Assembly (NCBI GenBank): GCA_963797765.1 | Contig: CAWCQU010000004.1 | Location: 444,094-508,093 of the forward strand | DNA length: 64,000 bases | Reading direction: 5' to 3' | Source: an uncultured Acidobacteriota bacterium | GTDB lineage: Bacteria > Acidobacteriota > Terriglobia > Acidiferrales > UBA7541 | Shown: positions 5,931 to 57,992 of the stretch, in pieces | Numbering within the stretch: position 1 is the stretch's first letter | Layout: every line of letters starts with the position of its first letter | Notes under the pieces: generated by a model | The model's database searches: none | Seen by the model: the letters and a program-made list of their open reading frames with translations, nothing else | What the model was told of the DNA's origin: nothing | Translations under genes and position numbers: made by a program

Positions 5931-6719
5931 ATGGCAATTCCGTATTACCACGTTGATGCATTCACGGGTGAGCTGTTTGCGGGTAACCCGGCGGGGGTTT
6001 GCATCCTTTCCGCGTTTCTCGCGGATAGTATCCTGCAGAAAATTGCGGTTGAGAACAGGCACAGCAACACCGCCTTTGTTGTTCCTCGAGCGGATGGTGA
6101 TTTCGACTTGCGCTGGTTTACACCCAAACTCGAGGACGACCTGTGCGGGCACGCGACCTTGGCAGCCGCCTATGTGCTCGCGCTGCGGAAGCACAACGTG
6201 TGGCCGGTTCGCTTCCACACCCGCAGCGGAATTTTAACCGTCGCCCGGGACGGAGACAGCCTTGAAATGGACTTTCCCGCCATGCCACCTCAACCCTGTG
6301 AGACGCCAGTCGGCCTTTTACCAGCTCTGGGTTTGAAAACGGCGCTGGTAACGAAATCGCGCGATTACCTTGTGGTGGTGGATCAGGCTGAGCAAGTGCG
6401 AGCGCTCTCTCCCGATTTTGCCGCTCTTGCCAAGCTGGACATCGGCCTCGCCGGAGCGATTGTTACCGCTCCCGCCGAGGGTGACGTGGATTACGTCTGC
6501 CGATTTTTTGCACCTTCGATCGGCATCGCTGAGGACCCTGCAACCGGTTCGATACACTGCACGCTGGCTCCATATTGGGCGGCGAGGCTGGGTAAGGACA
6601 CGTTGCGTGCCCAACAACTCAGTGCCCGCGTTGGATCCATGCAGTGCACAATCGGCGGCGATCGCGTGAAGATCGCCGGCAGGGCGCGCTTGTACCTTCA
6701 CGGCACGCTCGAACTCTAA
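5931..6719 (+). CDS. PhzF family phenazine biosynthesis-like isomerase
   Basis: MAIPYYHVDAFTGELFAGNPAGVCIL at the N-terminus and the PhzF-like C-terminal half. The ORF track start at 5886 is probably too long. Confidence 0.8.
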   Translation: MAIPYYHVDAFTGELFAGNPAGVCILSAFLADSILQKIAVENRHSNTAFVVPRADGDFDLRWFTPKLEDDLCGHATLAAAYVLALRKHNVWPVRFHTRSGILTVARDGDSLEMDFPAMPPQPCETPVGLLPALGLKTALVTKSRDYLVVVDQAEQVRALSPDFAALAKLDIGLAGAIVTAPAEGDVDYVCRFFAPSIGIAEDPATGSIHCTLAPYWAARLGKDTLRAQQLSARVGSMQCTIGGDRVKIAGRARLYLHGTLEL

Positions 6720-6903
6720 AGCCTCTGCCTCCAGAGCGAGAACCTGACACCCATTCCTGTCAACGAATTCGCGGCCATCTGCCTTTAAAGAGGCGACGAG
6801 GTTTTGGCGGCGGCCGGAAGACAGCACAGAAGTCCAAAAGTGTCACTCTATTATTCAATACTCGAGAGCGGCCGCAAATACCTTCTGAACTTCGCGGCGT
6901 GCG

Positions 6904-27033: not shown

Positions 27034-28239
27034 TCATGGTGCGGCGGCCTCCGCGGGCGGGTTCAAAACGCGGGAGCAGGCGCGAATGATGCGCCGGTAA
27101 GGCCAATCGCGCGCGTGGAAAAATATTTCGCCCTGGCGCGGCTTCGAATAAAACCAGCGCGTCAGCAGGGCAAGATGTTCGCCCAGAACTCCCGGGTCCT
27201 TTCGCACCATGGAATCTCCATTTTCTTTTTCAACGTGTTCGGCAGATTCAGAAACTGAATCGATCGCGGCTGGCGGCTCCAATTTCGCGCGCAAGATTTC
27301 TTCCATGGAACGCGGCTGGCTGGAAAGTTCGCCGAAACGAAGCGCAAATGGCTCGGCAATAATTCCGGCGCGAATCACGAAAACGGCGATGGCATTTTCT
27401 TCGGCGGACTTTTGCAGTATTACCGCGTCGAGTTCGTCCACGCGGCGGGCCAGTTCCGGGAATCCTTTCAAAACAGTTTCGGCCTTTTCGATTTTTTTGT
27501 GCAACGCCGCGGCGCGTTCAAAATCGAGCGCGGTGCTGGCGGCTTCGCGCTCTCGTTCCATTTCGTCCGTCAGCGCCAGACCACTGGTCGAGAGGGTGAC
27601 GAGGACCCGCGAGACTTCCGCGTCATATTCTTCTTTCGAGCAGCCCGCGAAGCAGGGGGCCAGGCACATTTTCATCTCGGAATAAATGCAGCCTGGATAC
27701 GCGGGATCACGGCGGATTTTGATCTGGCAGCGGCGGATTTTGAAGAGATTCAGAAATTCGTCGGCGAAGGATTCCGCGAATTTGCGATTGGGAAACGGGC
27801 CGAAGTAACTGCCGCCATCGGCGGAAATTCGGCGCGTGACGTAGCAGCGCGGATAGGCGTTTTTCATATTTACTTTCAGCAGCGCGGGGGGACGGACGCG
27901 CAGCCAATCGCGATATTTTCGCGGGAAGAGCCAGCGTGCGTGTGCGTAGAGGACGAGGGATTGTTCGAGTTTCGATCCGACGATGCGGTAGCGAATTTTC
28001 GCGGCGATTGCGCGCAGGTTGAGGCGCTTGCTTGCGGGATCGGGCGGACGCAAAATCCGCTCGGCGGCACGGCGCAGATCGGCTGTGCGGGCGAGATATG
28101 GTTCGGCGCCTTCGGCGCTTGATTCGACGAGGAAGACTGCAGGGCGCGCGGGCAATGCCGCGAAGAATTCTTCTTCGCGCGCAGCGTCGAATTCCTGTTC
28201 GCAATCAAGCGGTAGCATCTCCCTTCTCTTAAAGCCCAA
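27034..28239 (-). CDS. UvrC-homologous protein (degenerate GIY-YIG region, UvrC central region, 4-Cys and UVR motifs) lacking the C-terminal RNase H/HhH part. Cho-like.
   Basis: ...YFGPFPNRKFAESFADEFLNLFKIRRC...PAYPGCIYSEMKMCLAPCFAGCSKEEYDAEVSRVLVTLSTSG...TALDFERAAALHKKIEKAE. The true start may be the ATG at 28218 (MLPLDCEQ). Confidence 0.65.
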   Translation of the reverse strand: MGFKRREMLPLDCEQEFDAAREEEFFAALPARPAVFLVESSAEGAEPYLARTADLRRAAERILRPPDPASKRLNLRAIAAKIRYRIVGSKLEQSLVLYAHARWLFPRKYRDWLRVRPPALLKVNMKNAYPRCYVTRRISADGGSYFGPFPNRKFAESFADEFLNLFKIRRCQIKIRRDPAYPGCIYSEMKMCLAPCFAGCSKEEYDAEVSRVLVTLSTSGLALTDEMEREREAASTALDFERAAALHKKIEKAETVLKGFPELARRVDELDAVILQKSAEENAIAVFVIRAGIIAEPFALRFGELSSQPRSMEEILRAKLEPPAAIDSVSESAEHVEKENGDSMVRKDPGVLGEHLALLTRWFYSKPRQGEIFFHARDWPYRRIIRACSRVLNPPAEAAAP

Positions 28240-28257
28240 CTCTTAAACGCAATTTCA

Positions 28258-28290
28258 TGCCGGAACTGAAGCTCCGACCTCCTAAAAACC
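28258..28290. repeat. Conserved motif copy S1: short hairpin plus GAAGCTCCGACCTCCTAAAAACC
   Basis: Shares a 21-nt core with 34612-34632 and 40693-40713. Lies 17 nt downstream of the acyl-CoA dehydrogenase stop on the minus strand. Confidence 0.5.
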
Positions 28291-28306: not shown

Positions 28307-29452
28307 CTAATAACTTTTCAAAACCCAGGAAGCGATGACCAGGCGCTGAATTTCGCTGGTGCCTTCATAAATTTCGGTGATGCGCGCGTCGCGATAATTT
28401 CGCTCGACCGGATATTCCTGGCTGTAACCGTTGCCGCCGTGGATTTGAATGGCTTTGTGAGTGACGCGCGTGGACATTTCGCTGGCGAAAAGTTTCGCGC
28501 TGGCGGCTTCCATAGTGAAGCGCGCGCCGGCATCCTGTTTCCAGGCCGCTTTGCGAGCCAGCAGGCGGGCCGCTTCAATTTCAGTGGACATATCGGCGAG
28601 CATGAATTGAATGGCTTGAAAATCGAAGATGGGATGGCCGAAGGCTTGGCGTTCCTGCGAATATTTCAATGCCGCTTCGAACGCGCCTTGAGCGATGCCG
28701 ATAGCCTGCGAAGCGATACCGACGCGCCCGCCATCGAGAGTTGACAACGCGACTTTGTAGCCTTCGCCTTCGTTGCCGATTCGATTTGTAGCGGGAACTT
28801 CGCAATCGTTGAAGACAAGCTCGGTGCAGGCGCTGGCGTGAATGCCAAGTTTCTTTTCTTCTTTTCCGACAGCGAATCCCGGCGTACCTTTTTCCACCAC
28901 CAACGCCGTGATTCCTTTCTCTCCTTTTTCGGGATGCGTGTTCACGTAGACGATGGCGGCATCGGCAGCTCCGCCGTTGGTGATCCAGGCTTTTGTGCCG
29001 TTGATTACGTAGCGATCGCCTTTGAGAACGGCCTTGGTGCGGAGCGCGGCGGCGTTCGATCCAGCTTGCGGTTCGGTGAGCGCGTAGCATCCGATTTTTT
29101 CGCCGCGCGCGTAGGGCAGCAGAAATTTCTCTTTTTGCTCGGCGGTGCCGAAGCGATGGATCGGATCGCAGTACAGTGAATTCTGCACCGAAAGAATGAC
29201 TGAGGTGGAAGCACAGACGCGGGCGATTTCTTCAATGACGATGGTGTAGCTGATGTGGTCCATTCCCGCGCCGCCTTCTTCTTCGGGGAACGGCACGCCG
29301 GTCAGGCCGAGTTCGGCGGCTTTGTGGAAAAGGTCAAAGGGGAAATGGCCTTTTTCGTCAAGCTCGCGCGCGCGCGGCTTTACTTCGGCTTCAGCGAACT
29401 CGCGGACGCTGCGCTGGAGGAGTTGCTGTTCTTCGGTAAGGTCGAGATTCAA
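28307..29452 (-). CDS. acyl-CoA dehydrogenase; TTG start at 29452 preceded by GGAAGGAG
   Basis: LNLDLTEEQQLL...AELGLTG..., the catalytic region, and the C-terminal ...YEGTSEIQRLVIA. Confidence 0.9.
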   Translation of the reverse strand: MNLDLTEEQQLLQRSVREFAEAEVKPRARELDEKGHFPFDLFHKAAELGLTGVPFPEEEGGAGMDHISYTIVIEEIARVCASTSVILSVQNSLYCDPIHRFGTAEQKEKFLLPYARGEKIGCYALTEPQAGSNAAALRTKAVLKGDRYVINGTKAWITNGGAADAAIVYVNTHPEKGEKGITALVVEKGTPGFAVGKEEKKLGIHASACTELVFNDCEVPATNRIGNEGEGYKVALSTLDGGRVGIASQAIGIAQGAFEAALKYSQERQAFGHPIFDFQAIQFMLADMSTEIEAARLLARKAAWKQDAGARFTMEAASAKLFASEMSTRVTHKAIQIHGGNGYSQEYPVERNYRDARITEIYEGTSEIQRLVIASWVLKSY

Positions 29453-30230
29453 TTTATAGCTCCTTCCATTTGAGTGCTGGAGGGTGCGAGAGCGGAATTT
29501 TGATGGAGGTCGGAGCAAAAAACGGGAGTCGAAAAAGGCTCTCGAAAACAGACGATATAGGAGCGATTAGAAAACTGTATCTCGTTGAATTTTCGGATAG
29601 TTGCGGCTGTGCGACAGTGGTTGCTTCTGGCGATTAGCCAGGCGATTAGAAATGGGCGGCTTCGCATGTGATTGACCCGGGAAACTTCACTCGCAGAATG
29701 CATCCCATGATGGCTGCGTCGCGACTTAGCTTCCGCATTACTGGAAGCATATTCCGGAAAAGAAACGCCGCAGAATCCCAGAGAGCCACTGTTGGTAAGG
29801 TGAAACGGACTGTGGAAACTCTCTGTTTTTTGACCGTTCGGAATCTCCGCAGCAGGATTCTTTGCAAAGAAGATATTTTCGTTGATCGTATCAAACGCCG
29901 CAAACATATAACGGCAAGGGGGTTTATGGCCTTTTTGAGAGATATCAGTGCAAATCCCCCGGCCGTTTTTCGCAGCTGCTGTTGGCGCCGCAAGCATGAA
30001 ACCTTCTCCAAATTCCCAACATAACAGTGTACCACGCGAGTGCAAGCGACACGGTTTCACGGACGCTACGCGAGCAGGCTTCTCCGCCCCCTGGGCGGCG
30101 CAGCCGGACGCAGCCATTTTGGTTGTTTCACCGGCGATTTATAGAGACGAAACTGGTTCGCGAATTGTGGCTCGGTTGACAGGAAGCAGCAGAAAATTGA
30201 AGTTGTGATGCAAGCACGGGAGAATTCGAG

Positions 30231-30731
30231 ATGAATGTGGAATTGGTGATTGCTGCGGCTACTGATGAGGAGCGTGAGTGGGCAGCGCGCTTGATGGCGG
30301 GAACTGATCCGTGGATCCGGTTGGGGAGGGATTTGGAGCGGTGCCGAGTGGTTTGCAATGACCGCGAGGATTTATTGTACATCGCACATTTGAAGGATGA
30401 GGCTTGCGGGTTTTTGTTGATGCGGAGGCGCGGGGTGGCGGGGGCTCCTTATATTGTTTCGCTGGCTGTGCGAGAGGATTTGCGGGGGACGGGAGTGGGA
30501 TCGAGGATGCTGGAATTTGCGGAGGATTTTTTTCGGGGGGAGTCGCGGAATATTTTTATTTGCGTGTCTTCGTTCAATGGGAGGGCGCGGGAGTTGTATG
30601 AGCGATTGGGATATTTAGTGGTGGGGGAGTTTAAGGATTACATTGTTGACGGGGAGTCGGAGTTTTTGTTGTGGAAAGGGCTTTACCGCAGAGACGCTGA
30701 GGGCGCGGACGGAAGGAGAACGGGAAGATGA
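30231..30731 (+). CDS. GNAT family N-acetyltransferase with atypical codon usage (G/T-ending codons)
   Basis: Acetyl-CoA binding motif VSLAVREDLRGTGVGSRML. Codons GGG/GTG/TTG/GAG/TTT dominate, unlike the GC3-rich neighbours. Confidence 0.75.
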   Translation: MNVELVIAAATDEEREWAARLMAGTDPWIRLGRDLERCRVVCNDREDLLYIAHLKDEACGFLLMRRRGVAGAPYIVSLAVREDLRGTGVGSRMLEFAEDFFRGESRNIFICVSSFNGRARELYERLGYLVVGEFKDYIVDGESEFLLWKGLYRRDAEGADGRRTGR

Positions 30732-30895
30732 TTCGGGGGGGGCGGAAGAAAAAAAAGAAAGAAAGAAAAGGAACCGGAGAGATTCTTCGGGCCGGTCTTC
30801 GGCCCTCAAAATGACAATGGTGGGATTTTTGCGGGATGCCATTAAGGCTGGGAGTGCCCTTGAGATTGGAGTAGGTGGGACAGCCTAAAGGCCGT

Positions 30896-30946
30896 CCCCA
30901 CTAAAAACTTGGAGCCTCGCCTGCCGGCATCGGCGGGCGAGGCTCT
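30896..30946 (-). terminator. Terminator for the SPFH gene: GAGCCTCGCC-N11-GGCGAGGCTC then CAAGTTTTTAG, followed by a second GTGGGGACGGCC/GGCTGTCCCAC hairpin
   Basis: 10-bp perfect stem immediately after the stop codon at 30947-30949, with a T5 run downstream on the minus strand. Confidence 0.6.
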
Positions 30947-33055
30947 TTAGGTGAGTGGCCGCGGAGATTGGTTAATCGCGGGGTGGTAGGATATTTGCTG
31001 GTTTAATTTTGTCGGCCTCGTTTGTGGCCGCGGTTGCTGTTGGTGATGGTTCGGGCTTGGCGGCTGCGCCGCTGCTGCCCGGATGGTGGGTGCGCTGCCA
31101 TTACCGCCACCGTTGTTTAGGAAGCGCATGGCGGCGGAGGCCAGGCCGTCGAGTGCGCCGCCGCTGCCCGAGCTGGTCACCAGGATGTCTGGGACGAACT
31201 TGGCACGGCCTTCGGCTAACGCTGATACTACGTTTACGATGGCTGTGGCGTTGGAGCCCAGTGCTTCGACCTGGGCTCGGTAGCCGCGGGCGCGAGCGAG
31301 GCCGATCGCCTCGACTTCGGCTCCACGGGCCGTGCCGGTCTGGCGGATGAATTCGGCTTCGCCAGCAGCTTCGGCGGTGCGGGCGTCGGCGTTATTTCTT
31401 TTGATGTCGATGCCGACTTTGGAACGGGCCAGATCGGCTTGCATATCGGCTGTGCCCTTGGCGCGCTCCATTTCGATGCGTTCATCCTGCGAGGCTCGTT
31501 GTTTGCGGAACGTTTCGATTTCCTGATTGGCGATTTCGCGGTGGGTCAGAACGATGACCATGTCCTCCGGCAGGATCACGTCCTGAATGTAAACGCCCTT
31601 GGTTTCCACCTGATATTGCTCAAGCTGCTGCCGGATGTGGGAGAAAGCATCCTCCTGCACCTGGCGGCGCGTCTCGATGAAGCGAATCGCGGGCATGCTT
31701 TGCAAGGTGTCGCGGAAATGATTGCCGACGGCGGCCTGCAAGACTTCGTTGACCAGGTTCTTCATGGTGCCGACCATCGAAATAACGCGCGGCGCCTTGG
31801 TATCGGGCACATGGATCTGCACCTGCAAATCGATCTTGAAGACGAATCCCTCCTTGCTCTTGGCGACGATTTGCTGCAGTTGCTTATCGAGATTATGCGC
31901 TTCGGAAACCGCGTCGGCCCAGTTCAGATTCAGGATCGCGGTCGGCACGATTTCCGGCTCGTAACAGCGCGGGTTGAGTGGATACTTCCCGGTGCGCAGC
32001 GGTTCCTGCCAGATGCCGCGGTGTCCGGGATGAACCAGCGAGCCATATTTGAAATCGGTTCCTGAAGTATCCTCCGTGGGCAGGCCAACGTAAGCCTTGA
32101 TCACGGCAACTTCGCCTTGATTGACGACGAGCATCGGAACGAGTTCGACGCTGACGAGAAACGGATTCAAGGCGTAGGCGCCGTAGAGCAACGGATCGTG
32201 CTGCAAACCAATGCGGCCGCCGTTATCCAGGAAGGCCTGGAAATCCTGGTAATTGTTGTGGAGATGATTTTTGTTTCCGAGCAAGCGCTCGATCACTTCG
32301 GCGTCGCCGGCTTTTTTGCTTTCCATTTCGGAAACGTCAGCGAAACCGCCGAGACGGCTGGCGATGTCTCCCGAAGGCAGAGGGTCGCCTTCGTAAGTGG
32401 TGACGATGCCGATGGAGTCGAAGGTGAGACTGTCCTTGGCCACGCGCGGCTGAGGCTCGATGCGCTTCAATTCCAGCTGATCGGGACGAAGGCCGAGCGC
32501 CTCGGGAGTAAGGCGAGTGGTCCTGCCCATCTTGGCGCGTAATTCGGGAGAGACGGGGAGGCCGTAAACCTGGCTGCGGGTGATGACCATAAATCCCACC
32601 GGATGAATCGGAACCAGAGTTCCGGGAGGAAGCACGGGCCGCTGCACACCTTTTTGGCCGCCCAGCTGAACGAAGCTGCGCAGGTTGGAGAAATTAGCGA
32701 ATTCCTTGCGATAGACAGCGGACTTCGCGCCGATCGGAAGGGACTGGCCGACCTGGGCGATGACCACTCCGATTTCGCCGGCGGGGATTTGCACCCAGGG
32801 ATATTTTTCGACGGAATAGGTGTAGCACAACTTCCAACGCAGTCCGGGCATTAGAAGATCGGCCTGGTAGCCGGGCTCTCCATCGAAAGCGATGGGATTA
32901 TCCTTCGAGAGCTTCTTCCACGAGAATCGCTTGGTGACTAGGCCCACTTCCGTGGGGCCGATTCTGTGGATGGAAGCGAGGATCGTGTAAAGAAACACGA
33001 ACAACACCACAACCGCGAGCAACGTGATGGAACTGAACAGTGTGTCGCTAAACAT
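30947..33055 (-). CDS. SPFH/band-7 (flotillin / YqiK-like) membrane protein with a large N-terminal region
   Basis: N-terminal TM (ITLLAVVVLFVFLYTILA), then a flotillin-like PHB plus coiled-coil (...IETRRQVQEDAF...EIETFRKQRASQDERIEMERAKGTADMQADLARSK...EAAGEAEFIRQTGTARGAEVEAIGLARARGY). Confidence 0.75.
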   Translation of the reverse strand: MFSDTLFSSITLLAVVVLFVFLYTILASIHRIGPTEVGLVTKRFSWKKLSKDNPIAFDGEPGYQADLLMPGLRWKLCYTYSVEKYPWVQIPAGEIGVVIAQVGQSLPIGAKSAVYRKEFANFSNLRSFVQLGGQKGVQRPVLPPGTLVPIHPVGFMVITRSQVYGLPVSPELRAKMGRTTRLTPEALGLRPDQLELKRIEPQPRVAKDSLTFDSIGIVTTYEGDPLPSGDIASRLGGFADVSEMESKKAGDAEVIERLLGNKNHLHNNYQDFQAFLDNGGRIGLQHDPLLYGAYALNPFLVSVELVPMLVVNQGEVAVIKAYVGLPTEDTSGTDFKYGSLVHPGHRGIWQEPLRTGKYPLNPRCYEPEIVPTAILNLNWADAVSEAHNLDKQLQQIVAKSKEGFVFKIDLQVQIHVPDTKAPRVISMVGTMKNLVNEVLQAAVGNHFRDTLQSMPAIRFIETRRQVQEDAFSHIRQQLEQYQVETKGVYIQDVILPEDMVIVLTHREIANQEIETFRKQRASQDERIEMERAKGTADMQADLARSKVGIDIKRNNADARTAEAAGEAEFIRQTGTARGAEVEAIGLARARGYRAQVEALGSNATAIVNVVSALAEGRAKFVPDILVTSSGSGGALDGLASAAMRFLNNGGGNGSAPTIRAAAAQPPSPNHHQQQPRPQTRPTKLNQQISYHPAINQSPRPLT

Positions 33056-33329
33056 AAAATTTTTCTCCGCTGGTGCGGGCACACTTCCACGCCCGCCGTC
33101 TGCCGCGCGCTCGCCGGGGTATAACATGGAACGCCTTGAGCAGGCGCGCGAATTCCTTCATCAGAACTGGGTGATGTGTGGAAAACGGTTGGAGCTAGTT
33201 TTTGGTGTGGGCCCTCGCAAGCCCGAATGCGGCGCGCGACGCTTCTAGGACAAACGTGCGCGGCGCGGACCTGAGATACTCTGCTCAATTATCGGATGCA
33301 GGCGTCTGGGGAAGGATTCGGGAATCGAA

Positions 33330-33450
33330 TGGTAATGGTAGTACCAAGATTTGTTACGTAAGTGATTTGTTATGTTTGTGGGATGTTCGTGAAGTAGGGG
33401 GAGTTCGTTTTTACCGCAGAGACGCAGAGGTCGCCGACGGAGAGTGAATG
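33330..33450 (+). pseudogene. Degenerate duplicate of the GNAT gene 3' end, about 110 nt, matching 30620-30725
   Basis: Nucleotide similarity (TTACCGCAGAGACGCAGAGGTCGCCGACGGAG versus TTACCGCAGAGACGCTGAGGGCGCGGACGGAAGG). Translated match ...YVSDLLCLWDVREVGGVRFYRRDAEVADGE versus ...YIVDGESEFLLWKGLYRRDAEGADG. Confidence 0.5.
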
Positions 33451-33454
33451 GAGC

Positions 33455-33505
33455 GCGGGCGAGGCCCTTCGAGGCTCAGGATAGACGGAAGCCGGCTCCT
33501 ACAAC
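33455..33505. repeat. Mosaic repeat module R1 (GGGCGAGGCCCTTCGAGGCTCAGGATAGA ... GGAAGCCGGCTCCTACAA)
   Basis: Related to 39624-39670 and 50115-50205. Overlaps the HIT gene stop codon. Confidence 0.45.
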
Positions 33506-33993
33506 TGCACTGTGAGGGCGCGGTGGAGTTTTTCGTAGGTGGTGGGGAGGTCTTCTGGTTCCATGCGGGTTTCGGCGATTGTGGTCATGAAATTGGCGTC
33601 GCCATTCCAGCGGGGTAGGACGTGGAGATGCAGGTGGCCGGTTACGCCTGCGCCTGCCGAGCGGCCTAGATTCATACCGAGGTTGAAACCGTTGGGTTGG
33701 TAGATTTCGGCCAGGGCGGCTTGGACTCGTTGGGCCAGGCGGATATTTTCGCACATGGTGTCGGGATCGGCGGCGGCGAAATCGGAGATGTGGGCGTAGG
33801 GAACGATCATTACGTGGCCGGTGGTGTAAGGAAAGCGATTGAGGATAATGAAATTTTTTTCGGCGCGCAGGACGATCTGAGTACGGACGTCGTCATTGAG
33901 AGCGATGGCGTCGCAAAAAATGCAGCGGTCGCCGTCGTCTTTTTTGGCTTCCGCGATGTAGCGGTAGCGCCAGGGAGTCCAGAGGAAGTCCAT
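33499..33993 (-). CDS. HIT family hydrolase
   Basis: HLHLHVLPR histidine triad. Confidence 0.85.
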   Translation of the reverse strand: MDFLWTPWRYRYIAEAKKDDGDRCIFCDAIALNDDVRTQIVLRAEKNFIILNRFPYTTGHVMIVPYAHISDFAAADPDTMCENIRLAQRVQAALAEIYQPNGFNLGMNLGRSAGAGVTGHLHLHVLPRWNGDANFMTTIAETRMEPEDLPTTYEKLHRALTVQL

Positions 33994-34004
33994 CCCTTTG
34001 GAGG

Positions 34005-34361
34005 TCAGCTCCGGGGAGATTCGCCGGCGGGAGGCGGAGTGGGCGGAGGCGGAGCTGCTTCCGCGGCTTTGGCGATGTTGACGAAATCTTTTAATTCCTT
34101 GCTGGGCTTGAAGAAGGGAATTTTCTTCGGCGGAACGTCGACTTTGGCGCCGGTCTTGGGATTGCGGCCGATGCGGCCGCGGCGCTGGCGAGTGCGGAAG
34201 CTGCCGAAGCCGCGAATTTCGATTTTGTCGCTGTGCTGCAGCGCTTGAATGATGGAGTCGAAAATGGTTTCGACGACCATTTCGGATTCCTTGCGCGGCA
34301 ATTCGGTAACCTTGGTCACTTCCTCGACCAAGTCAGCCTTCGTCATGGTGTGCTCAGTCAT
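34005..34361 (-). CDS. ihfB: IHF/HU family DNA-binding protein (IHF-beta-like) with a Pro-rich tail
   Basis: ..GFGSFRTRQRRGRIGRNPKTGAKVDVPPKKIPFFKPSKELKD.. arm motif. Directly downstream of rpsA, as in E. coli rpsA-ihfB. Confidence 0.7.
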   Translation of the reverse strand: MTEHTMTKADLVEEVTKVTELPRKESEMVVETIFDSIIQALQHSDKIEIRGFGSFRTRQRRGRIGRNPKTGAKVDVPPKKIPFFKPSKELKDFVNIAKAAEAAPPPPTPPPAGESPRS

Positions 34362-34600
34362 TGCTCTCGGCTCCTCGCGAGACTGCGCGGATTAGCGCGC
34401 GAAAATCACCGTTCCGGGCTGGTGCAGAACCGGTGGGGCGATGGACTGCCTGTGCATATCACTAATCTGCCTGCAAGGTAAATGAAATTTACGAGCGGCG
34501 GGTTCCGGCGGCACACAAGGTTGAAGGTGCAAACCGCCGCAACGCTCCTTCTGATCGGAAGCTTCAGGGGCTAAAGCCCGCTTCTCTTGCAAACGCAAAT

Positions 34601-34632
34601 GTCGGAGCTAAAGCTCCGACCCCCTAAGAACC
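34601..34632. repeat. Conserved motif copy S2: GTCGGAGCtaaaGCTCCGAC hairpin plus CCCCTAAGAACC
   Basis: Between rpsA and ihfB. Shares the AAGCTCCGACCCCCTAAGAAC core. Confidence 0.5.
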
Positions 34633-34713: not shown

Positions 34714-36762
34714 CTAAGAGGTCCCCCGCTTGGCCATAATGGCATCACCGATGGTTGCATTGGGCGACGACTTGGAGGAACGATACTCTTCCATGTCGCG
34801 GCGTTCGACCTGCTTTACGGCGGCGCGATAGCTCAAACTGATCTTGTGCTGGTCCTTATCCAGACGGATTACTTTGAAATCGTATTCCTGGCCAGGTTCG
34901 AGCTTTGTGGCGGACGATTTGCCGGCGCCGCCGCGAGGCTGATTCTGCTGTTGCTGGCGATCACCCTTGTGCTTGCGCTCTTCGATTTCGGAAATGTGGC
35001 AGAGGCCTTCGATACCTTCGGCCAAGGTGATGAAGACGCCGAATTCAGCGGCGCGGGCGACTTTGCCGCGGACCACGTCATTCAACTTATGGGATTGGAA
35101 CCAATTGGCCCAAATGTCGTTGAGCTGCTTGATGCCGAGAGAGAGGCGGCGATGCTCGGCATCTACTTTGATGACCTTGGCTTCGACCGTGTCACCCTTT
35201 TTGAATTTTTCGCTGGGGTGTTTGATGCGTTCGGTCCAGCTCATATCGCTGATGTGGATGAGGCCTTCGACACCTTCTTCGATTTCGACGAAGGCGCCGA
35301 ATTCGGTCATATTGCGGACGCGGCCGGTGACGACCGTGCCGGCGGGATATTTATCGACTACATCCTGCCAGGGATCGGGCGAAGTTTGTTTCAGGCCGAG
35401 CGAAATGCGGTGCTGATCGGGCTTCACTTCGAGGACCACGACGTCCACTTCGTCGCCCGCGTTGACGATTTTCGAAGGATGCTTCATGCGCTTCGACCAG
35501 CTCATTTCGCTGACGTGGACCAAACCTTCGACGCCCGGTTCGAGCTGGACGAACGCGCCGTAATCGGTGACGCCGACTACTTTACCCTTCAGGCGAGTGC
35601 CCACCGCGAAACGCTCGGGGACCGTGGCCCAGGGATCTTCCAGAAGTTGTTTGCGGCCGAGCGAGATGCGCATTTTTTCGCGGTCGAATTTCAGGACTTT
35701 GACCTGGATATCGTCGCCGGGCTTGACAACTTCTGAAGGGTGCTTGACGCGTCCCCAGACGAGATCGCTGATGTGCAGCAGGCCGTCCAGTCCGCCGAGA
35801 TCGACGAAGACGCCGTAATCAGTGACGTTTTTTACTTTGCCTGTAGTAACCGCGCCTTCGGAAATGGTTGAGAGCAGAGCCTCGCGCTGGGTTTTTAACT
35901 CTTCTTCGAGAATCGCGCGGCGGCTGACCACTACGTTGCCGCGCTTGCGATTTACTTTGAGGACGCGACAGGTGATTTCTTTTCCCTTCCAGGCGTCGAG
36001 ATCATGTGTGGGGCGCACGTCCAGCTGAGAGGCGGGCAAAAATGCCCGAAGGCCGATATCGACGACCAGGCCGCCTTTGATGCGATCCACCGCGCGGCCG
36101 GTGATGGTGGTGTGGTCGCGATAGGATTTTTCAATATTCTCCCAGACGCGGCGGCGGCGGGCGCGCACATGCGACAAGATCACGTAGCCATCTTTGTGTT
36201 CGTGAGTGCGCTCGACTTCAATGGTCTGGCCGGACTGGAAGGGGATGCCGCCGAATTCGACAAATTCCTGGGCGGGGACCAGGCCTTCCGTTTTGGCGCC
36301 GAAATCCACGACCACGCCGTGCTCATTCACCGCGACTACATGGCCCTCAATTGTTTCGCCTTCCGTTGGCGCTGCTTGGGGCTCGGAATACTGCTCAATC
36401 AACTGCTCCATCTGCTCATTGGACTCGGAGGTGTCAGCCGAATCAGCATGCTCGGGCGGCGCGGGTGCGACGGAATCAGCCACGGCAGCGGCAGAGGAAG
36501 ATTCGACGGACGGGGCTGGATGAATTTCGGCTTGGGCGGAGGGATCGAGTTCGGTGGAACGCGGTTCGGAGTGTTCCGTATCGGCAACCGCAGCTTGAGC
36601 AGAGTCGTGATGGTGGTCCGATGGATTCTCGACGGCGCCGGAGCCGGGTTCGGTAGCGACGGCGGTAGCAGCGGCGGCCATAGCCGGGGCTACGGAGGCA
36701 GTGGCGCCCAAATCGGCGGCTGCGGAAAGTTGTTGGTCTTGGTTTTCCATCTCTGGCAGCAT
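34714..36762 (-). CDS. rpsA: 30S ribosomal protein S1 (six S1 domains) with an acidic/Ala-rich N-terminal extension of about 150 aa
   Basis: Six S1 repeats (GHVVAVNEHGVVVDFG..., ...). Start assigned to ATG 36762 (GGGGAG, 7 nt, ATG); the ORF track start at 36819 is also possible. Confidence 0.9.
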   Translation of the reverse strand: MLPEMENQDQQLSAAADLGATASVAPAMAAAATAVATEPGSGAVENPSDHHHDSAQAAVADTEHSEPRSTELDPSAQAEIHPAPSVESSSAAAVADSVAPAPPEHADSADTSESNEQMEQLIEQYSEPQAAPTEGETIEGHVVAVNEHGVVVDFGAKTEGLVPAQEFVEFGGIPFQSGQTIEVERTHEHKDGYVILSHVRARRRRVWENIEKSYRDHTTITGRAVDRIKGGLVVDIGLRAFLPASQLDVRPTHDLDAWKGKEITCRVLKVNRKRGNVVVSRRAILEEELKTQREALLSTISEGAVTTGKVKNVTDYGVFVDLGGLDGLLHISDLVWGRVKHPSEVVKPGDDIQVKVLKFDREKMRISLGRKQLLEDPWATVPERFAVGTRLKGKVVGVTDYGAFVQLEPGVEGLVHVSEMSWSKRMKHPSKIVNAGDEVDVVVLEVKPDQHRISLGLKQTSPDPWQDVVDKYPAGTVVTGRVRNMTEFGAFVEIEEGVEGLIHISDMSWTERIKHPSEKFKKGDTVEAKVIKVDAEHRRLSLGIKQLNDIWANWFQSHKLNDVVRGKVARAAEFGVFITLAEGIEGLCHISEIEERKHKGDRQQQQNQPRGGAGKSSATKLEPGQEYDFKVIRLDKDQHKISLSYRAAVKQVERRDMEEYRSSKSSPNATIGDAIMAKRGTS

Positions 36763-36877
36763 CGAAATTCTCCCCGCGGTCTCGACTGTTCGCCGCGGAT
36801 ACTTCCTCGAAGATTCCACCCCTGAGGGATAGAGGGAAACGGGGATCCAGCGGCAGTAATGAATGATCTCGACACGG

Positions 36878-37852: not shown

Positions 37853-38007
37853 GAAGCAAGCATAGGCGGCTCGTGGTTCCGACGCAAGTTGACTGGGCTG
37901 TGCAAGGCTGTGCGTCCTGTGGATAAGGGGAGGGACCTCGAACTTATCTTTCTGTGAAGTTAACGGAATTCACGGGATATTTTTGAACTTGCCGGCCCGA
38001 ATTTAGT

Positions 38008-39613: not shown

Positions 39614-39623
39614 TTTTATCTAG

Positions 39624-39670
39624 CGGGACGCGGCCCTTCGAAGCTCAGGGTAAACGGGTGGCGCCCCATT
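39624..39670. repeat. Mosaic repeat module R2 (GGGACGCGGCCCTTCGAAGCTCAGGGTAAACGGGTGGCGCCCC) immediately upstream of the dnaJ start
   Basis: 27-nt core shared with 33455-33482; related to 50115-50143. Contains the palindrome CTTCGAAG. Confidence 0.45.
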
Positions 39671-39700
39671 TGTTTTATTCTCGTGCCGAATGCGCTCGAT

Positions 39701-40081
39701 CTACAGCTTGGCCCAACGCGCGTTTAGCTCGGACAGCTCCTGCTGCTCGCGCGCAAGATCCTCGCGGCGCTGGCGCTGCTCTTCCGAGCGAACGCCCATG
39801 GCCGCTTCTTTTGTGTTCGCTTTTTCGATCCAGCCGTCGACCCAGGCCACTTTTTGCTCGACGCTCGCGGAGTCGGAGCGAAAACGGAAAAACGTGCCGG
39901 AAATTTCTACCGAGCGTGGCGGAAAATCGGGTGGCGTATCACGCTGCATGTCGTAAAACAGACGGCGCCAGTCGGCGCTGGGTGATTCCGAAATCTGGAC
40001 CTGAATCAGATAATAATTGTCGCGAACTTTTTGGACCGCCTGCGGCGCACTAACCCGCCGAATACCGGTTGTCGTCGTCAA
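39701..40081 (-). CDS. hypothetical protein (126 aa) with a C-terminal coiled-coil, in the position where grpE would be expected
   Basis: TTG start with a GGAGAG SD. Protein-like composition, ...EEQRQRREDLAREQQELSELNARWAKL. No GrpE similarity is apparent. Confidence 0.5.
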   Translation of the reverse strand: MTTTTGIRRVSAPQAVQKVRDNYYLIQVQISESPSADWRRLFYDMQRDTPPDFPPRSVEISGTFFRFRSDSASVEQKVAWVDGWIEKANTKEAAMGVRSEEQRQRREDLAREQQELSELNARWAKL

Positions 40082-40135
40082 GACCGCTCTCCGATAAAAC
40101 CTCTGTCGAACGTCTCCCTGCTTGGTTCTAAAGAT

Positions 40136-40176
40136 GCCGCCCTCCCGACAGAATTCGTCGGGCGAGGAAGGGCAGC
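40136..40176. repeat. REP-like nested stem-loop element, copy G (GCCCT-CCCGACagaattcGTCGGG-CGAGGAAGGGC)
   Basis: Inner 6-bp hairpin plus the CGAGGAA tail; outer GCCCT/AGGGC pairing. Confidence 0.45.
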
Positions 40177-40203
40177 GCTACACGACCCCTATGACTTAGC
40201 AGA

Positions 40204-40395
40204 CTAGTTTACGAATTCCGGCGAGCAGCGGTGCTCCGCCGCGTGCGCTTTCAAACGGATCAGAGCCAAAATTCCCTGTTTTTTCAGTTCTGTCTGTTCT
40301 CCAGGAACCGGTTTTTCCACGCGAGCAAGGTCAAGCTCTCGTGAGCGGATTCCGATGAGGTTCAATTCGAGTTGTCTATATTCAGGGCAAATCAT
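40204..40395 (-). CDS. small hypothetical protein (63 aa; ATG 40395 after AGAAGGAAAA)
   Basis: MICPEYRQLELNLIGIRSRELDLARVEKPVPGEQTELKKQGILALIRLKAHAAEHRCSPEFVN. Good SD; the longer track ORF beginning at 40533 is unlikely. Confidence 0.4.
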   Translation of the reverse strand: MICPEYRQLELNLIGIRSRELDLARVEKPVPGEQTELKKQGILALIRLKAHAAEHRCSPEFVN

Positions 40396-40649
40396 AAGAG
40401 TTTTCCTTCTAAAATGTTTCCGGCGAAAACCCAAGAATCGAGCCCGCCGGTTTGCTGTTCGCGGGGCGGAGCGAGGTATGAAGGCAGCGTATGAACGCTC
40501 CGCCCGCCGGACAGATGTGCCGAAGCCGGACATTCAAACTCCTCTTACAAATACCACGACAAGTTTGCCGGCCTCAGTTCCAGGACTTTCCGACCAAAGA
40601 GTCGGAACGCCAAAGACGCATAAGCCCACTTTTTCTGGGACTTCTAATG

Positions 40650-40713
40650 CCGGAGCTTCCCGATCGAACACATCGGGACACAAACCGCGCGGAAGCTCCG
40701 ACCCCCTAAAAAC
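40650..40713. repeat. Conserved motif copy S3: nested hairpin (GGAGCTTCC[CCCGATcgaacacATCGGG]...GGAAGCTCC) plus GACCCCCTAAAAAC
   Basis: Starts 5 nt downstream of the dnaK stop (40718). Confidence 0.5.
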
Positions 40714-40717
40714 GATC

Positions 40718-43863: not shown

Positions 43864-44376
43864 ATGAGCGCGGAAAACAGGGCGAAGATTGGCCGCATTC
43901 TCCTGCTGCTGGGGCGGCTGGGGATGGGCGGAATTTTTCTTTACGCCGCGTACTCGAAGCTTTGGCCGCTGACGACCGTGAAGACCAACCTGGCGTTCTT
44001 CGCGATGCAGGTGGATTCGTATCAATTGCTGCCGTCTTCGATGGTGATGTTTGTGGCGAAGACGCTGCCGTGGTTTGAACTGGCGCTCGGGCTGGGATTG
44101 GTGATTGGATGGCCGTTGCGGCTGATCAGCAGCGCTGCGAGTGCGCTAATTCTGGGATTTTTTATCGTGATTGTTCGCAGCTATGCGATGGGATTGCAGA
44201 TTAATTGCGGCTGTTTTGGGCAGAGCGAAAAGTTGGATTTCACTAAGGTAATTCTGGATGGTTTGATGCTCGCGCTCACGCTGGCGGTGACCATCGGAGC
44301 GTTTCTGCGTCATCGCAGAATGATTAACGGCAGCTCCGCGGTTCCCCTTACTTCTCCTCAACTGAAAACAGAGTAG
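43864..44376 (+). CDS. DoxX/MauE-like membrane protein
   Basis: Four TM helices, a CGCFG motif, paired with the DsbA-like gene. Confidence 0.65.
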   Translation: MSAENRAKIGRILLLLGRLGMGGIFLYAAYSKLWPLTTVKTNLAFFAMQVDSYQLLPSSMVMFVAKTLPWFELALGLGLVIGWPLRLISSAASALILGFFIVIVRSYAMGLQINCGCFGQSEKLDFTKVILDGLMLALTLAVTIGAFLRHRRMINGSSAVPLTSPQLKTE

Positions 44377-57715: not shown

Positions 57716-57992
57716 TGCCAGAGCCGGCGCCGTGAATGCGGCCCTTTCTAGAATGATACCCGAATCCGAGGCTCGAGTTGCTTAACAGGTTGGGCGAATT
57801 GTTCCGATGATTCCTTCGAACTCTTTTGAAACGTGGAACGCCCAACCCGCATCTGCTACTTTGACAAGCTGGTCGTACAAACCTATGATTGACGCGCACT
57901 CGTGATCGGAGTCAGGCCAGTGATTTCCCGGCTACGTTCAACCCGAAATACTCCTTCAACATTCCGCATAATTTTATTTGGGAGGCCATTGT

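Follow-up and report, generated by a model that had tools for sequence, protein, structure and literature searches.

In the 64-kb stretch of DNA analysed (hereafter the window), a gene of the minus strand encoding an acyl-CoA (butyryl-CoA-type) dehydrogenase (ACAD; 28307-29452; Pfam Acyl-CoA_dh_N/M/1) is followed by a spacer of 780 nt (29453-30230) and, on the plus strand, by a gene encoding a GNAT N-acetyltransferase of 166 aa (30231-30731; Pfam Acetyltransf_1). Beyond a purine tract and several hairpins, two further genes of the minus strand encode an SPFH/Band-7 membrane protein (30947-33127; Pfam Band_7) and a HIT-family hydrolase (33505-33999; Pfam HIT). ACAD starts with a TTG codon at 29452 preceded by the ribosome-binding site GGAAGGAG, and a 381-aa gene call of the relative L001 maps onto it. 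The drop in GC content between ACAD and SPFH that had drawn attention to this locus was found again, with values of 0.527 over 29453-30946 and of 0.508 over 29453-30230 for a window mean of 0.579. Both intervals represent the window minimum at their respective scales (1494 nt and 780 nt) and lie ca. 3.2 sd under the mean. The dip is genuine but modest, and non-coding DNA together with the T-ending two-fold codons of GNAT would account for it.

No convincing ORF had been seen in the spacer by the original prediction, and the analysis leads to the same view: an ORF that would encode 222 aa on the minus strand (29449-30117) is judged spurious. Its GC3 is 0.50 against 0.62-0.71 in real genes, it has no match in Pfam or NCBIfam, its substitutions relative to L151 are distributed over codon positions as 26/24/29 without periodicity, and a 13-nt deletion has occurred within the corresponding region of L002. 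A real gene in the spacer was rejected on the combined lack of a domain and of codon periodicity and on this 13-nt indel. In an exhaustive search of spacer ORFs, all matches covered the ACAD-proximal end; one of them is a 182-aa ORF of L001, the only matching ORF whose locus was looked up and which was placed at this locus. The four spacer ORFs used as a concatenated query returned 0 matches, a weak negative given that the same query also missed the known L001 ORF. The ORFs of 182-233 aa that gene callers put before ACAD in several relatives are likely to be spurious as well, a judgement that derives from the ORF of the window, L001 and L151, to which the test was confined.

Comparison with relatives suggests that the spacer consists of two promoter/leader blocks around a lineage-specific middle. 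The ACAD-side block (29453-29656, minus strand) is conserved and non-coding, being alignable at 75-88% in 8 of the 8 clade relatives compared (the L146 contig does not extend to it), and would contain the leader and the likely promoter of ACAD; its fold is ordinary (z -0.24). The box GCGATTAG, which reads CTAATCGC on the minus strand, occurs at 29563, 29630 and 29642; these three copies are invariant in the alignment, are the only such sites in the 64 kb, with none in the outgroups, and may form an operator array for ACAD; one copy is missing from L002 through the 13-nt deletion. On the GNAT side, a second conserved block (30114-30230, plus strand) likely holds a promoter and a 5' leader, with CCATTTTGGTTGTTTC (30114-30129) and AAACTGG (30150-30156) kept in 10 of the 10 clade sequences aligned. 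The promoter, operator and leader roles given to these blocks are putative and are read from sequence conservation. Between them lies a middle part (29657-30113, no strand assigned) that could be attributed to no gene, RNA family or repeat. It is alignable to L001 and L151 only, and not to L002, L007, L144, L145, L147 or L086. It differs from L001 by two 1-nt indels and is 86% identical to L151 (just 72% in the sub-block 29781-29900), against 60-74% at 4-fold sites. This middle part may have been swapped freely among lineages; in the relatives it frequently carries pieces of REP-like repeats.

It is highly improbable that the 780-nt spacer is a functional non-coding locus, be it an sRNA gene, a decayed gene or a replication origin. 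The identity of 86-93% found over the spacer within the window/L001/L151 lineage does exceed the 60-74% of 4-fold sites, and a predicted sigma-70-like site (29672-29699) is also kept in L151, yet the middle part is replaced in other clade lineages and the spacer contains no internal terminator. An sRNA or a decayed gene, as proposed by the original prediction, received no support: Rfam gave no match over 29453-30230 at gathering scores nor at E up to 5, fold energies are ordinary (z -0.45 and -0.17 for 29657-30113), and protein homologues were found only for ORFs matching the conserved ACAD-proximal block. The empty Rfam search and the ordinary folds, including that of the ACAD-side block, led to the rejection of an sRNA or riboswitch; for a covariation test, the alignable sequences were too few. 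As for an origin, the cumulative skew minimum is close by (ca. 25 kb of the window), but the spacer contains only 3 DnaA-box-like sites (up to 2 mismatches) for 2.1 expected, and oriC was rejected. The intergenic regions from 23 to 38 kb showed no DnaA-box cluster. A polarity switch in GC skew is located a few kb from the spacer, though without such a cluster. Finally, a MITE with terminal inverted repeats at 29705-29720 and 30107-30122 was discarded, its left arm not being kept in L151 and no other copy being found.

The GNAT product matches Pfam Acetyltransf_1 (PF00583) over residues 39-128 with 50.8 bits (cut-off 20.7) and displays the acetyl-CoA motif A (Q/R-x-x-G-x-G/A) as RGTGVG at residues 85-90, of which G88 and G90 vary little or not at all across the family alignment. 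The widespread family to which it belongs can be recognised by CVSSFN, a motif without variation. The searches yielded 154 homologues as well as 313 genome loci, the loci by alignment-based scans, single-protein scans of genome and metagenome contigs having given none. The nearest homologues, with 60-64% identity, belong to Terriglobia and other Acidobacteriota, and the outgroup orthologues sit at the recR locus. Substitutions relative to L151 fall on the three codon positions as 14/7/21. Because dN/dS is 0.17-0.21 and the family invariants are kept, GNAT is, as judged from its pattern of substitution, a functional gene under purifying selection. Assignment to RimI (TIGR01575) was rejected, the score of 38.0 bits being well below the equivalog cut-off of 86.4; the name "RimI" carried by homologues in source annotations is automatic, and the designation of the gene at 43864-44376 as a "true rimI" was found to be unsupported. 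A toxin-antitoxin GNAT of the TacT/AtaT/KacT type was also discarded, as no RHH/DUF1778 partner gene lies upstream: the only same-strand ORF in that position (29948-30208, 86 aa) has no Pfam match and is frameshifted by a 1-nt indel relative to L001 and L151. Likewise, no antitoxin-type partner occurs beside the outgroup GNAT orthologues. A defence system was not retained, PADLOC giving no match for GNAT or SPFH.

The 3' side of GNAT appears to be a small variable hotspot. A 42-nt direct repeat, D1 (TTTACCGCAGAGACGC...), for which 0 matches are expected by chance, occurs on the plus strand within the GNAT 3' end (copy 1, 30682-30723) and between SPFH and HIT (copy 2, 33410-33451), the two copies bracketing a 2.7-kb segment with SPFH. 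Copy 1 encodes a clade-specific C-terminal tail, YRRDAEGADGRRTGR, while outgroup GNATs stop ca. 15 residues earlier. In L146, the D1 element is located just past the GNAT stop codon; in L151, a single hybrid copy is found without SPFH, and the 3' end of GNAT aligns to 33410-33481 of the window. It can be envisaged that, in the window lineage, a dispersed D1 became fused to the GNAT 3' end, where it would now code for the tail. SPFH is a variable cargo 3' of GNAT that occurs in part of the clade only: it is found in L001, L002 and L146, is missing in L151 and is replaced by a TIR-like gene in L007 and L152.

In the 3' region of GNAT, a G8 run (30735-30742) and 30 nt of polypurine sequence resembling (GAAA)n together occupy 30735-30773 on the plus strand. 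The polypurine tract that had been placed at 30735-30770 is real, although its limits were off by a few bases: the pure run spans 30744-30773, and no other run of purines or pyrimidines in the window exceeds 19 nt. It is identical in L001, purine-rich and variable in L002, short in L146 and absent from L007, L144, L145 and L151. The tract would be low-complexity sequence at the D1/SPFH junction. Three hairpins were read from the sequence further downstream (30789-30807, 30876-30901 and 30912-30945, no strand assigned), in a region (30725-30960) that folds with -96.9 kcal/mol (z -3.83) and whose hairpins are partly kept in L002 and L146. The last of them abuts the SPFH stop codon and is followed on the minus strand by CAAGTTTTTAG; it is a predicted terminator common to the convergent GNAT and SPFH genes.

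The most unusual property of this locus is the strand asymmetry of GNAT. With a coding-strand GC skew of +0.51, this gene has the highest 500-nt value in the window (ca. 4 sd out), and the G- and T-ending codons noted by the original prediction are indeed frequent (G3 0.51, T3 0.26, C3 0.11), two-fold codons ending in T and Leu being encoded by TTG. The codon usage is nevertheless not "foreign-looking" as had been proposed, since GC3 is normal for the window (0.62) and the anomaly consists of an excess of G over C and of T over A: the G/T-ending codons belong to an asymmetry between the strands of this transcription unit and are not the GC signature of a donor. The GC3 skew, +0.63, is about twice the local background (+0.25 +/- 0.13). 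An 80-nt skew profile and the base composition delimit a zone of extreme asymmetry at 30140-30780 (plus strand; G 39.8%, C 13.1%, A 22.8%, T 24.3%) that starts at ca. 30140 and extends from the 5' leader of GNAT through its ORF to the beginning of the 3' region. In this zone, G-tracts, GGA and GGAG reach the highest densities of the window or fall 1-2 counts short of them, and 30140-30800 contains 20-22 G-tracts per 500 nt against 5.8 +/- 3.2; a G-quadruplex was rejected, as the latter interval has no four G3+ tracts with loops of 1-7 nt. The skew also touches codon positions 1 and 2, with TTR preferred to CTN for Leu, and amino acids needing C make up a fraction of 0.13-0.17 in the clade GNATs against 0.227 +/- 0.03.

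All GNATs of the clade display a skew of +0.36 to +0.54, against -0.09 to +0.18 in ca. 80 outgroup orthologues; none of 78 such orthologues shows the bias. It begins ca. 100 to 200 nt before the gene and either ends at the stop codon, as in L007, where the same-strand TIR-like gene located directly downstream has a skew of only +0.15, or runs into the 3' region, as in the window. HIT presents the mirror image of the GNAT GC3 skew, with a coding-strand value of -0.68 against -0.25 to -0.40 in its neighbours and +0.08 and -0.32 in the outgroups. A continuous regional strand effect over HIT and GNAT was rejected, the HIT-GNAT junction of L151 being unskewed.

The history of the locus can be read from the outgroups L150 and L148 (n=2), which carry the co-directional string S1-HU-HIT-ACAD without GNAT and whose ACAD is 87-88% identical to that of the window, compared with 94-100% within the clade. 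In these genomes, HIT either adjoins ACAD, with 67 nt between the two genes in L150, or the order is HIT-DinB-SDR-ACAD, and GNAT, SPFH and the long spacer are all missing. HIT is orthologous to its outgroup counterpart (70-73% identity), and ACAD and HIT are the native flanks of an insertion. Every lineage with an ACAD at least 94% identical has the reverse-oriented GNAT and the long spacer at this place; GNAT occurs in all clade loci, and the order ACAD-spacer-GNAT wherever the contig extends to the ACAD side, the L146 contig, which does not reach that side, showing GNAT-SPFH instead. Relatives with the same segment, locus and composition, named by the original prediction as evidence that would count against its proposal, were found in at least 7 species-level lineages. 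Of the proposed horizontally acquired insert, the insertion itself stands when compared to L150 and L148, and its recent date does not, since it is clade-wide at the same site. The segment is an old insertion rather than a recent acquisition, because at least 7 species-level relatives carry it at the same locus; it has been inherited vertically in the clade, with a working GNAT gene.

A recent foreign island, in which a different organism was the source of GNAT with its flanks and codon usage is the signature of the donor, would explain why 29453-30946 has the lowest GC and GNAT the most deviant codon usage of the window, and why the segment is missing from both outgroups; the GNAT family is found in several phyla with comparable levels of identity and does move between lineages. 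This explanation is nonetheless quite improbable. Site and composition are the same in at least 7 lineages with synonymous divergence of 0.6-0.8, the closest homologues are from Acidobacteriota, and GC3 is typical of the genome; donor signatures do not usually look like strand skew. When compared to a genomic island, the composition does deviate, with the lowest GC and the highest skew, yet it does so as a strand skew with normal GC3, and the segment is absent only at ACAD identities of 87-88%, not from close relatives. Mobility genes are also missing, with no integrase or transposase domain in the neighbouring genes, as judged from L001 gene calls around the locus, no tRNA gene across the whole 64-kb window, and no match in searches of plasmid and phage DNA. 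Recent HGT was rejected on synteny and composition common to the whole clade.

The comparison shows instead that, in the ancestor of one Terriglobia ("Ca. Acidiferrales"-like) clade of soil Acidobacteria, a cassette made of GNAT and its own upstream region entered between HIT and ACAD, reversed relative to S1-HU-HIT-ACAD, and has been inherited vertically ever since. The insertion would have separated ACAD from its upstream neighbours, and a new ACAD promoter/operator block and the GNAT promoter/leader may now face each other over the long spacer. The asymmetry would have arisen a single time, in the stem lineage and no earlier than the insertion, and since been inherited and slowly eroded; this is the leading reading of the skew, although a tentative one. 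The whole account, i.e. an old inherited insertion with an asymmetry set up once and later eroding, is given about an even chance of being correct. It has to contend with the fact that no donor of such composition is known, the nearest homologues being normal in skew. HIT is a further difficulty, as this native neighbour shifted in place, within the clade, to the mirror-image GC3 skew, arguing for a local process and against a composition brought in from elsewhere. The non-coding HIT-GNAT junction of L151, being unskewed, provides a counterpoint to that argument.

We do not think that present-day hypermutation produces the asymmetry. An ongoing mutational cause is unlikely because rates resemble those of ACAD and dS is not raised; local hypermutation of GNAT was rejected on dS values equal to those of ACAD (0.56 vs 0.57 and 0.73 vs 0.78 for GNAT and ACAD, respectively). 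Polarised singleton changes indicate that G was lost 34 times and gained 11 times overall (26 vs 2 at position 3), as an eroding skew would have it. In the same test, however, the ACAD control loses its own commonest base, C, in a similar way (63 lost, 25 gained), and the G loss in GNAT may partly be a parsimony artefact. The skew might alternatively be actively maintained over the GNAT unit, either by selection on RNA (Rho) or by a mutation bias of the non-template strand linked to transcription or R-loops. This we consider possible but rather unlikely. It would accommodate a skew that includes the non-coding 5' leader in every lineage, alters amino-acid content and is of equal strength in lineages dS 0.6-0.8 apart, in an arrangement that exists only since the insertion put GNAT antisense to its neighbours. 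It agrees less well with the net loss of G among polarised substitutions, with per-site rates that are ACAD-like and a dS that is not raised, and with the use of TCN for Ser and mostly CGN for Arg, so that C is not shunned wherever possible.

Rho-loading (rut) regions are C-rich, G-poor and unstructured. The antisense RNA of GNAT has the same composition over a length exceeding the minimum of ca. 80 nt for such regions, with ca. 40% C and 13% G over 640 nt and a folding energy of -0.12 kcal/mol per nt against -0.36 in ordinary genes. Along a Rho route, the C-poor sense mRNA would escape Rho, while the C-rich antisense would act as a Rho-loading region and halt read-through from S1-HU-HIT(-SPFH) before ACAD. 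In its strongest form, the GNAT cassette would be a compositional transcription insulator, selection having removed nearly all C from its sense strand after the antisense landing within a co-directional string of strongly expressed genes. This proposal is very unlikely to be correct. Active maintenance of the skew also has against it the strong hairpin terminator already present at the SPFH stop codon, and no case of an entire gene moulded in such a manner is known to us. Deliberate codon de-optimisation, by which GNAT would shun C-ending codons and keep its translation low or slow, is scarcely more convincing. C-ending codons look preferred in the genome, S1 and HU having a C3 of 0.45-0.47; the C3 of GNAT is the lowest in the window and those of S1, HU and HIT the highest, and the choice of TTG for Leu and of T-ending two-fold codons would also fit. 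The untranslated leader, codon positions 1 and 2 and amino-acid content are affected too, however, and the G3/C3 balance in this part of the window tracks the DNA strand and not the expression level.

For annotation, these data mean that the gene encodes a GNAT of a widespread and uncharacterised family with a CVSSFN motif, not RimI, and that the "island" goes back to an old insertion, now fixed, and not to a recent horizontal transfer. A compositional anomaly that seemed foreign is in fact the strand skew of one transcription unit throughout a clade, strong enough to alter the amino-acid make-up of the protein. If the asymmetry set up once is a relic, as preferred here, the locus would be a dated example from which the slow pace of skew erosion can be measured. 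If selection maintains it, e.g. through Rho, the logic of transcription termination would be able to shape coding sequence; were the insulator to exist, a whole coding gene, amino acids included, would have been reshaped into a directional Rho-loading site.

Among known systems, the GNAT protein resembles the N-alpha-acetyltransferase/RimI-like group of the GNAT superfamily, with which it shares the full Acetyltransf_1 domain and the R-x-x-G-x-G motif, and the solved structures that it matches best are those of N-terminal acetyltransferases from archaea and eukaryotes. It differs from the RimI group in scoring below the RimI cut-off, in belonging to the distinct CVSSFN-motif family and in having a repeat-derived C-terminal tail. 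The locus is similar to a genomic islet at a recombination hotspot with short dispersed (REP-like) repeats at its borders in that its cargo varies (SPFH, a TIR-like gene or nothing) and in that 42-nt direct repeats bracket SPFH, one relative (L151) having a single-copy "empty" site; it is unlike an islet in lacking an integrase, a transposase and a tRNA gene, and in that GNAT is fixed clade-wide. With rut regions, the likeness is compositional only, the antisense of GNAT having much C, little G and almost no structure for more than 600 nt. In Borrelia, Chlamydia and Lawsonia, leading-strand genes are enriched in G and T (PMC2671203, PMC2089121, PMC2031905). Compared with such replication- or transcription-linked codon asymmetry, GNAT is shifted in the same direction, a shift that likewise affects each of the three codon positions as well as amino-acid content (PMC2671203), and, unlike an asymmetry that extends over a replichore, the shift concerns here one transcription unit of ca. 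640 nt and, in mirror form, HIT.

The segment at 29453-30946 lies between an acyl-CoA dehydrogenase gene (ACAD; 28307-29452) and a gene encoding an SPFH/Band-7 protein (30947-33127), followed by those for a HIT hydrolase (33505-33999), HU (34011-34367) and ribosomal protein S1 (34714-36819), all on the minus strand; it carries a GNAT N-acetyltransferase gene on the plus strand (30231-30731). Searching with ACAD gave a clean gap, with one group of loci 94-100% identical and the remainder at 88% or less. At the locus level, the outgroup comparison comprises two loci, L150 and L148 (ACAD 87-88% identical), in which S1, HU, HIT and ACAD form a gene string on a single strand, with 67 nt between HIT and ACAD in L150 and DinB-like and SDR genes between them in L148. 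GNAT, the SPFH gene and the long spacer are absent from both. GNAT occurs in every locus of the group sharing at least 94% identity (L001, L002 = L006, L007 = L152, L144, L145, L146, L147, L086 and L151, all metagenome-assembled sequences like the outgroups, some of the long-read assemblies being frameshifted, e.g. L151 and L002). In all contigs that extend to ACAD, it is reverse-oriented upstream of that gene, with a spacer of ca. 780-1520 nt; the L146 contig ends before ACAD and shows GNAT then SPFH. Values of dS among clade members range from 0.56 to 0.78, with those of GNAT close to those of ACAD (0.56 vs 0.57; 0.73 vs 0.78). Absence from the outgroups, presence at all loci of the group and this level of divergence support the view that the segment was inserted into the ancestral gene string, though long ago. 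The original prediction of a horizontally acquired insert therefore holds as far as insertion relative to the outgroups is concerned; relatives carry the same segment at the same locus with similar composition, which refutes a recent transfer, and a foreign origin is not supported.

The GNAT product has a complete Acetyltransf_1 domain (50.8 bits vs a cut-off of 20.7) and the acetyl-CoA motif RGTGVG, and solved structures match it at the general N-acetyltransferase level only. Its assignment as RimI was rejected (38 bits vs the RimI cut-off of 86.4), and the name "RimI" found in source records is not to be trusted. The family, in which a CVSSFN motif is invariant, is well populated: a clustered database holds 154 proteins, and genomes representing species contain 313 loci, spread over Acidobacteriota, Bacteroidota, Gemmatimonadota and others. 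Distant orthologues (64% identity or less) are located elsewhere, for instance after dnaX-ybaB-recR, and dN/dS in clade comparisons is 0.17-0.21.

The 778-nt spacer between ACAD and GNAT (29453-30230) falls into three parts. The ACAD-proximal block (29453-29656) aligns at 75-88% in eight clade relatives, the L146 contig not reaching it, and contains, on the ACAD strand, three copies of CTAATCGC (GCGATTAG on the plus strand at 29563, 29630 and 29642), a TATAT element and a GGAAGGAG ribosome-binding site. No further copies of the box occur in the 64 kb and none in the outgroups; one is missing from L002 via a 13-nt deletion. This block may represent ACAD's own promoter, operator and leader, which would be needed because the insertion separated ACAD from HIT. 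At the other end (30114-30230), two motifs, CCATTTTGGTTGTTTC (30114-30129) and AAACTGG (30150-30156), are kept in all 10 clade sequences and presumably belong to the GNAT promoter and leader; the promoter, operator and leader roles in both blocks are predicted from conservation. The middle (29657-30113) is alignable only to L001, of the same species, and to L151, and is swapped for unrelated sequence in L002, L007, L144, L145, L147 and L086. A REP-like element of the window (33457-33500; …GAGGCTCAGGATAGACGGAAGCCGGCTCCTAC) has copies in the ACAD-GNAT spacers of L002, L145, L147 and L086 and none in the window's own spacer. The middle differs from that of L151 by a single 1-nt indel and shares 86% identity with it (72% in the sub-block 29781-29900), whereas 4-fold sites of the flanking genes reach only 60-74%; parts of it are therefore constrained in this sub-lineage. 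Two 1-nt indels (30028 and 30057) within 31 nt of the spacer separate the window from L001; L151 agrees with L001 at the second, and they may reflect real polymorphism or assembly error.

In silico analyses lent no support to the suggestion that the spacer holds an sRNA or a decayed gene. Its middle gave no Rfam match up to an E-value of 5, no plasmid or phage DNA match and ordinary fold z-scores (-0.45 and -0.17), and no terminator was found inside the spacer. A 222-aa minus-strand ORF (182 aa in L001) shares 4 nt with the start of ACAD and remains open in L151; at the corresponding position of other relatives, gene calls give ORFs of 215-233 aa. It was rejected as a gene because its substitutions are even by codon phase (26/24/29, vs 14/7/21 in GNAT), its GC3 is 0.50, indels of a length not divisible by three disrupt it, and an exhaustive search returned only ORFs aligning to the conserved ACAD-proximal end, one being that of L001. 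A plus-strand ORF of 86 aa immediately 5' of GNAT is frameshifted relative to L001 and L151. These data bear out the claim that 29453-30230 contains no convincing ORF.

The 3' end of GNAT acts as a small hotspot of variation. The SPFH segment is flanked by two copies of D1, a direct repeat of 42 nt, at 30682-30723 and 33410-33451 (0 matches expected by chance). The first supplies the 16 final codons of GNAT and so explains why the protein ends in YRRDAEGADGRRTGR, those of the outgroups being ca. 15 residues shorter; in L146, the element lies just beyond the GNAT stop codon. In L151, the region corresponding to 30682-33451 (6321-6770) has a single hybrid D1 copy and lacks the whole SPFH segment, the 3' end of GNAT aligning with window 33410-33481, so that the SPFH gene was gained or lost via D1 recombination. 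At the place of SPFH, L007 (8762-9694, plus strand), equivalent to L152 (5414-6256, minus strand), has a gene for a TIR-like effector of 280-310 aa matching PADLOC PDLC00733 (E 1e-11), PHROG 16139 (E 9e-41) and, weakly, Nuc_deoxyrib_tr, which is possibly anti-phage cargo. Directly 3' of the first D1 copy, the predicted polypurine tract was recovered with coordinates a few bases off at most: a G8 (30735-30742) precedes a 30-nt purine run (30744-30773), the longest purine/pyrimidine run of the window (runner-up, 19 nt). The tract is identical in L001, variable and (GAAA)n-like in L002, short in L146 and missing where D1 or SPFH is missing; we read it as a probable slippage-type low-complexity junction sequence. 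Three hairpins follow (fold z -3.83), the last of which (30912-30945) adjoins the stop codon of SPFH and is a predicted terminator for the convergent genes.

Several other features were recorded in the window, which has no tRNA gene and no Rfam family at gathering score. A 401-aa protein (27034-28239, minus strand) with the UvrC middle region and UVR motif only, which UvrC and DEDD-exonuclease fusion models match in part, is adjacent to ACAD throughout the clade and is not found there in the outgroups. Another short dispersed repeat, D2 (28257-28290 and 34599-34632; 34 nt, 85% identical, hairpin-like), sits in the gaps between this gene and ACAD and between HU and S1, and is also found in L001 and L002. 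A stretch of ca. 1.1 kb (39614-40717) whose ORFs are all short and low in GC3 (149 and 126 aa; GC3 0.45-0.47) may be a second long noncoding region. Cumulative GC skew increases from 0 to 10 kb, decreases up to 25 kb and increases again to 62 kb, a pattern that implies either inversion of a 15-kb block or, near 25 kb, an origin-like switch in polarity; the sign changes at the same genes in L152, and the intergenic regions from 23 to 38 kb contain no cluster of DnaA boxes. With up to one mismatch, TTATCCACA occurs at 23 sites vs 5.8 expected (perfect at e.g. 37918-37926 and 58487-58495), scattered rather than clustered and oriented with local skew, probably a composition effect. In a 128-aa gene (57974-58360, minus strand), skew on the coding strand is -0.32 (G3 0.17, C3 0.49), and the antisense strand has the window's second-highest density of G-tracts, 19 per 500 nt.

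Compositionally, the segment is low in GC, as had been proposed: at 0.527, and 0.508 for 29453-30230, vs a window mean of 0.579, these are the 1494-nt and 780-nt minima of the window, ca. 3.2 sd under the mean. The atypical codon usage attributed to GNAT was likewise confirmed, this being the most skewed gene of the window (coding-strand GC skew +0.51; G3 0.51, C3 0.11, T3 0.26, A3 0.12; next genes, ca. 0.25), and the 500-nt skew peak (0.515, start 30176) is ca. 4 sd out. Since its GC3 (0.62) is typical of the window and G prevails over C, the codon bias is a strand skew, not a GC-content anomaly. In the first eight clade genes measured, skew is +0.36 to +0.54 (G3 0.46-0.58, C3 0.07-0.20), vs -0.09 to +0.18 in ca. 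80 outgroup orthologues regardless of GC. Clade 4-fold sites have 0.53-0.74 G and 0.05-0.19 C, and codon positions 1 and 2 are likewise shifted. Leucine is encoded by 11-15 TTR vs 2-5 CTN codons in six of seven clade genes, with L144 as an exception (CTN 10, TTR 7), the outgroup average being 12 CTN and 2.7 TTR. The share of amino acids with obligate-C codons (P, H, Q, T, A) is 0.13-0.17 in clade proteins vs 0.227 +/- 0.031 in outgroups. GNAT is the skew maximum in every clade locus; the skew starts ca. 90 nt upstream of the ATG in the window and ca. 200 nt in L007, and ends near 30780 and at the stop codon, respectively, the next same-strand gene in L007 having only +0.15.

Several causes of this skew were ruled out: hypermutation, as dS of GNAT equals that of ACAD; a G-quadruplex array, as no motif is present, though G-tract density in the GNAT zone is the window maximum and the GGA and GGAG densities are at most one or two counts below theirs; an antisense gene, as all ORFs on the opposite strand are short; and local replication skew alone, the plus-strand GC3 skew of GNAT being +0.63 vs +0.25 +/- 0.13 for 22 neighbouring genes. 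Polarised singleton changes in seven lineages (G loss 34 vs gain 11; at position 3, 26 vs 2), with per-site rates resembling those of ACAD, suggest that the clade ancestor had a larger G excess, which is now eroding; as the ACAD control has a similar excess loss of its commonest base (C, 63 vs 25), part of this signal is a known parsimony bias.

A composition purely imported with GNAT is argued against by HIT, whose coding-strand GC3 skew (-0.68; G3 0.12, C3 0.59; -0.70 and -0.49 in other clade members) mirrors that of GNAT on the same DNA strand. Its neighbours range from -0.03 to -0.40 over three loci (S1 and HU, -0.19 to -0.36) and the outgroup HIT genes, orthologous at 70-73% identity, have +0.08 and -0.32. 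Because this gene is native and the mirror skew confined to the clade, something acted in place on the same strand; the noncoding HIT-GNAT junction of L151 is not skewed, so the two genes do not form one continuous zone. A role of Rho in the skew is possible. Rho-loading regions are generally C-rich, G-poor and unstructured. Through the insertion, GNAT came to lie antisense to a string of strongly expressed genes, and its antisense RNA, also C-rich, G-poor and nearly unstructured (-0.12 kcal/mol per nt vs -0.36 for ordinary genes), would suit Rho loading, a resemblance only.

Overall, the segment reads best as a GNAT cassette that was inserted long ago in reverse orientation and is fixed in the clade, with a divergent regulatory spacer on one side and, at its 3' end, a variable region bounded by repeats. 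Its one unusual feature is an extreme GC skew, present throughout the clade but limited to the cassette, that reaches into protein composition. Leading-strand genes of strongly skewed genomes favour G over C and T over A at all codon positions and in amino-acid content (PMC2671203); the same pattern is found in GNAT, but limited to one cassette.
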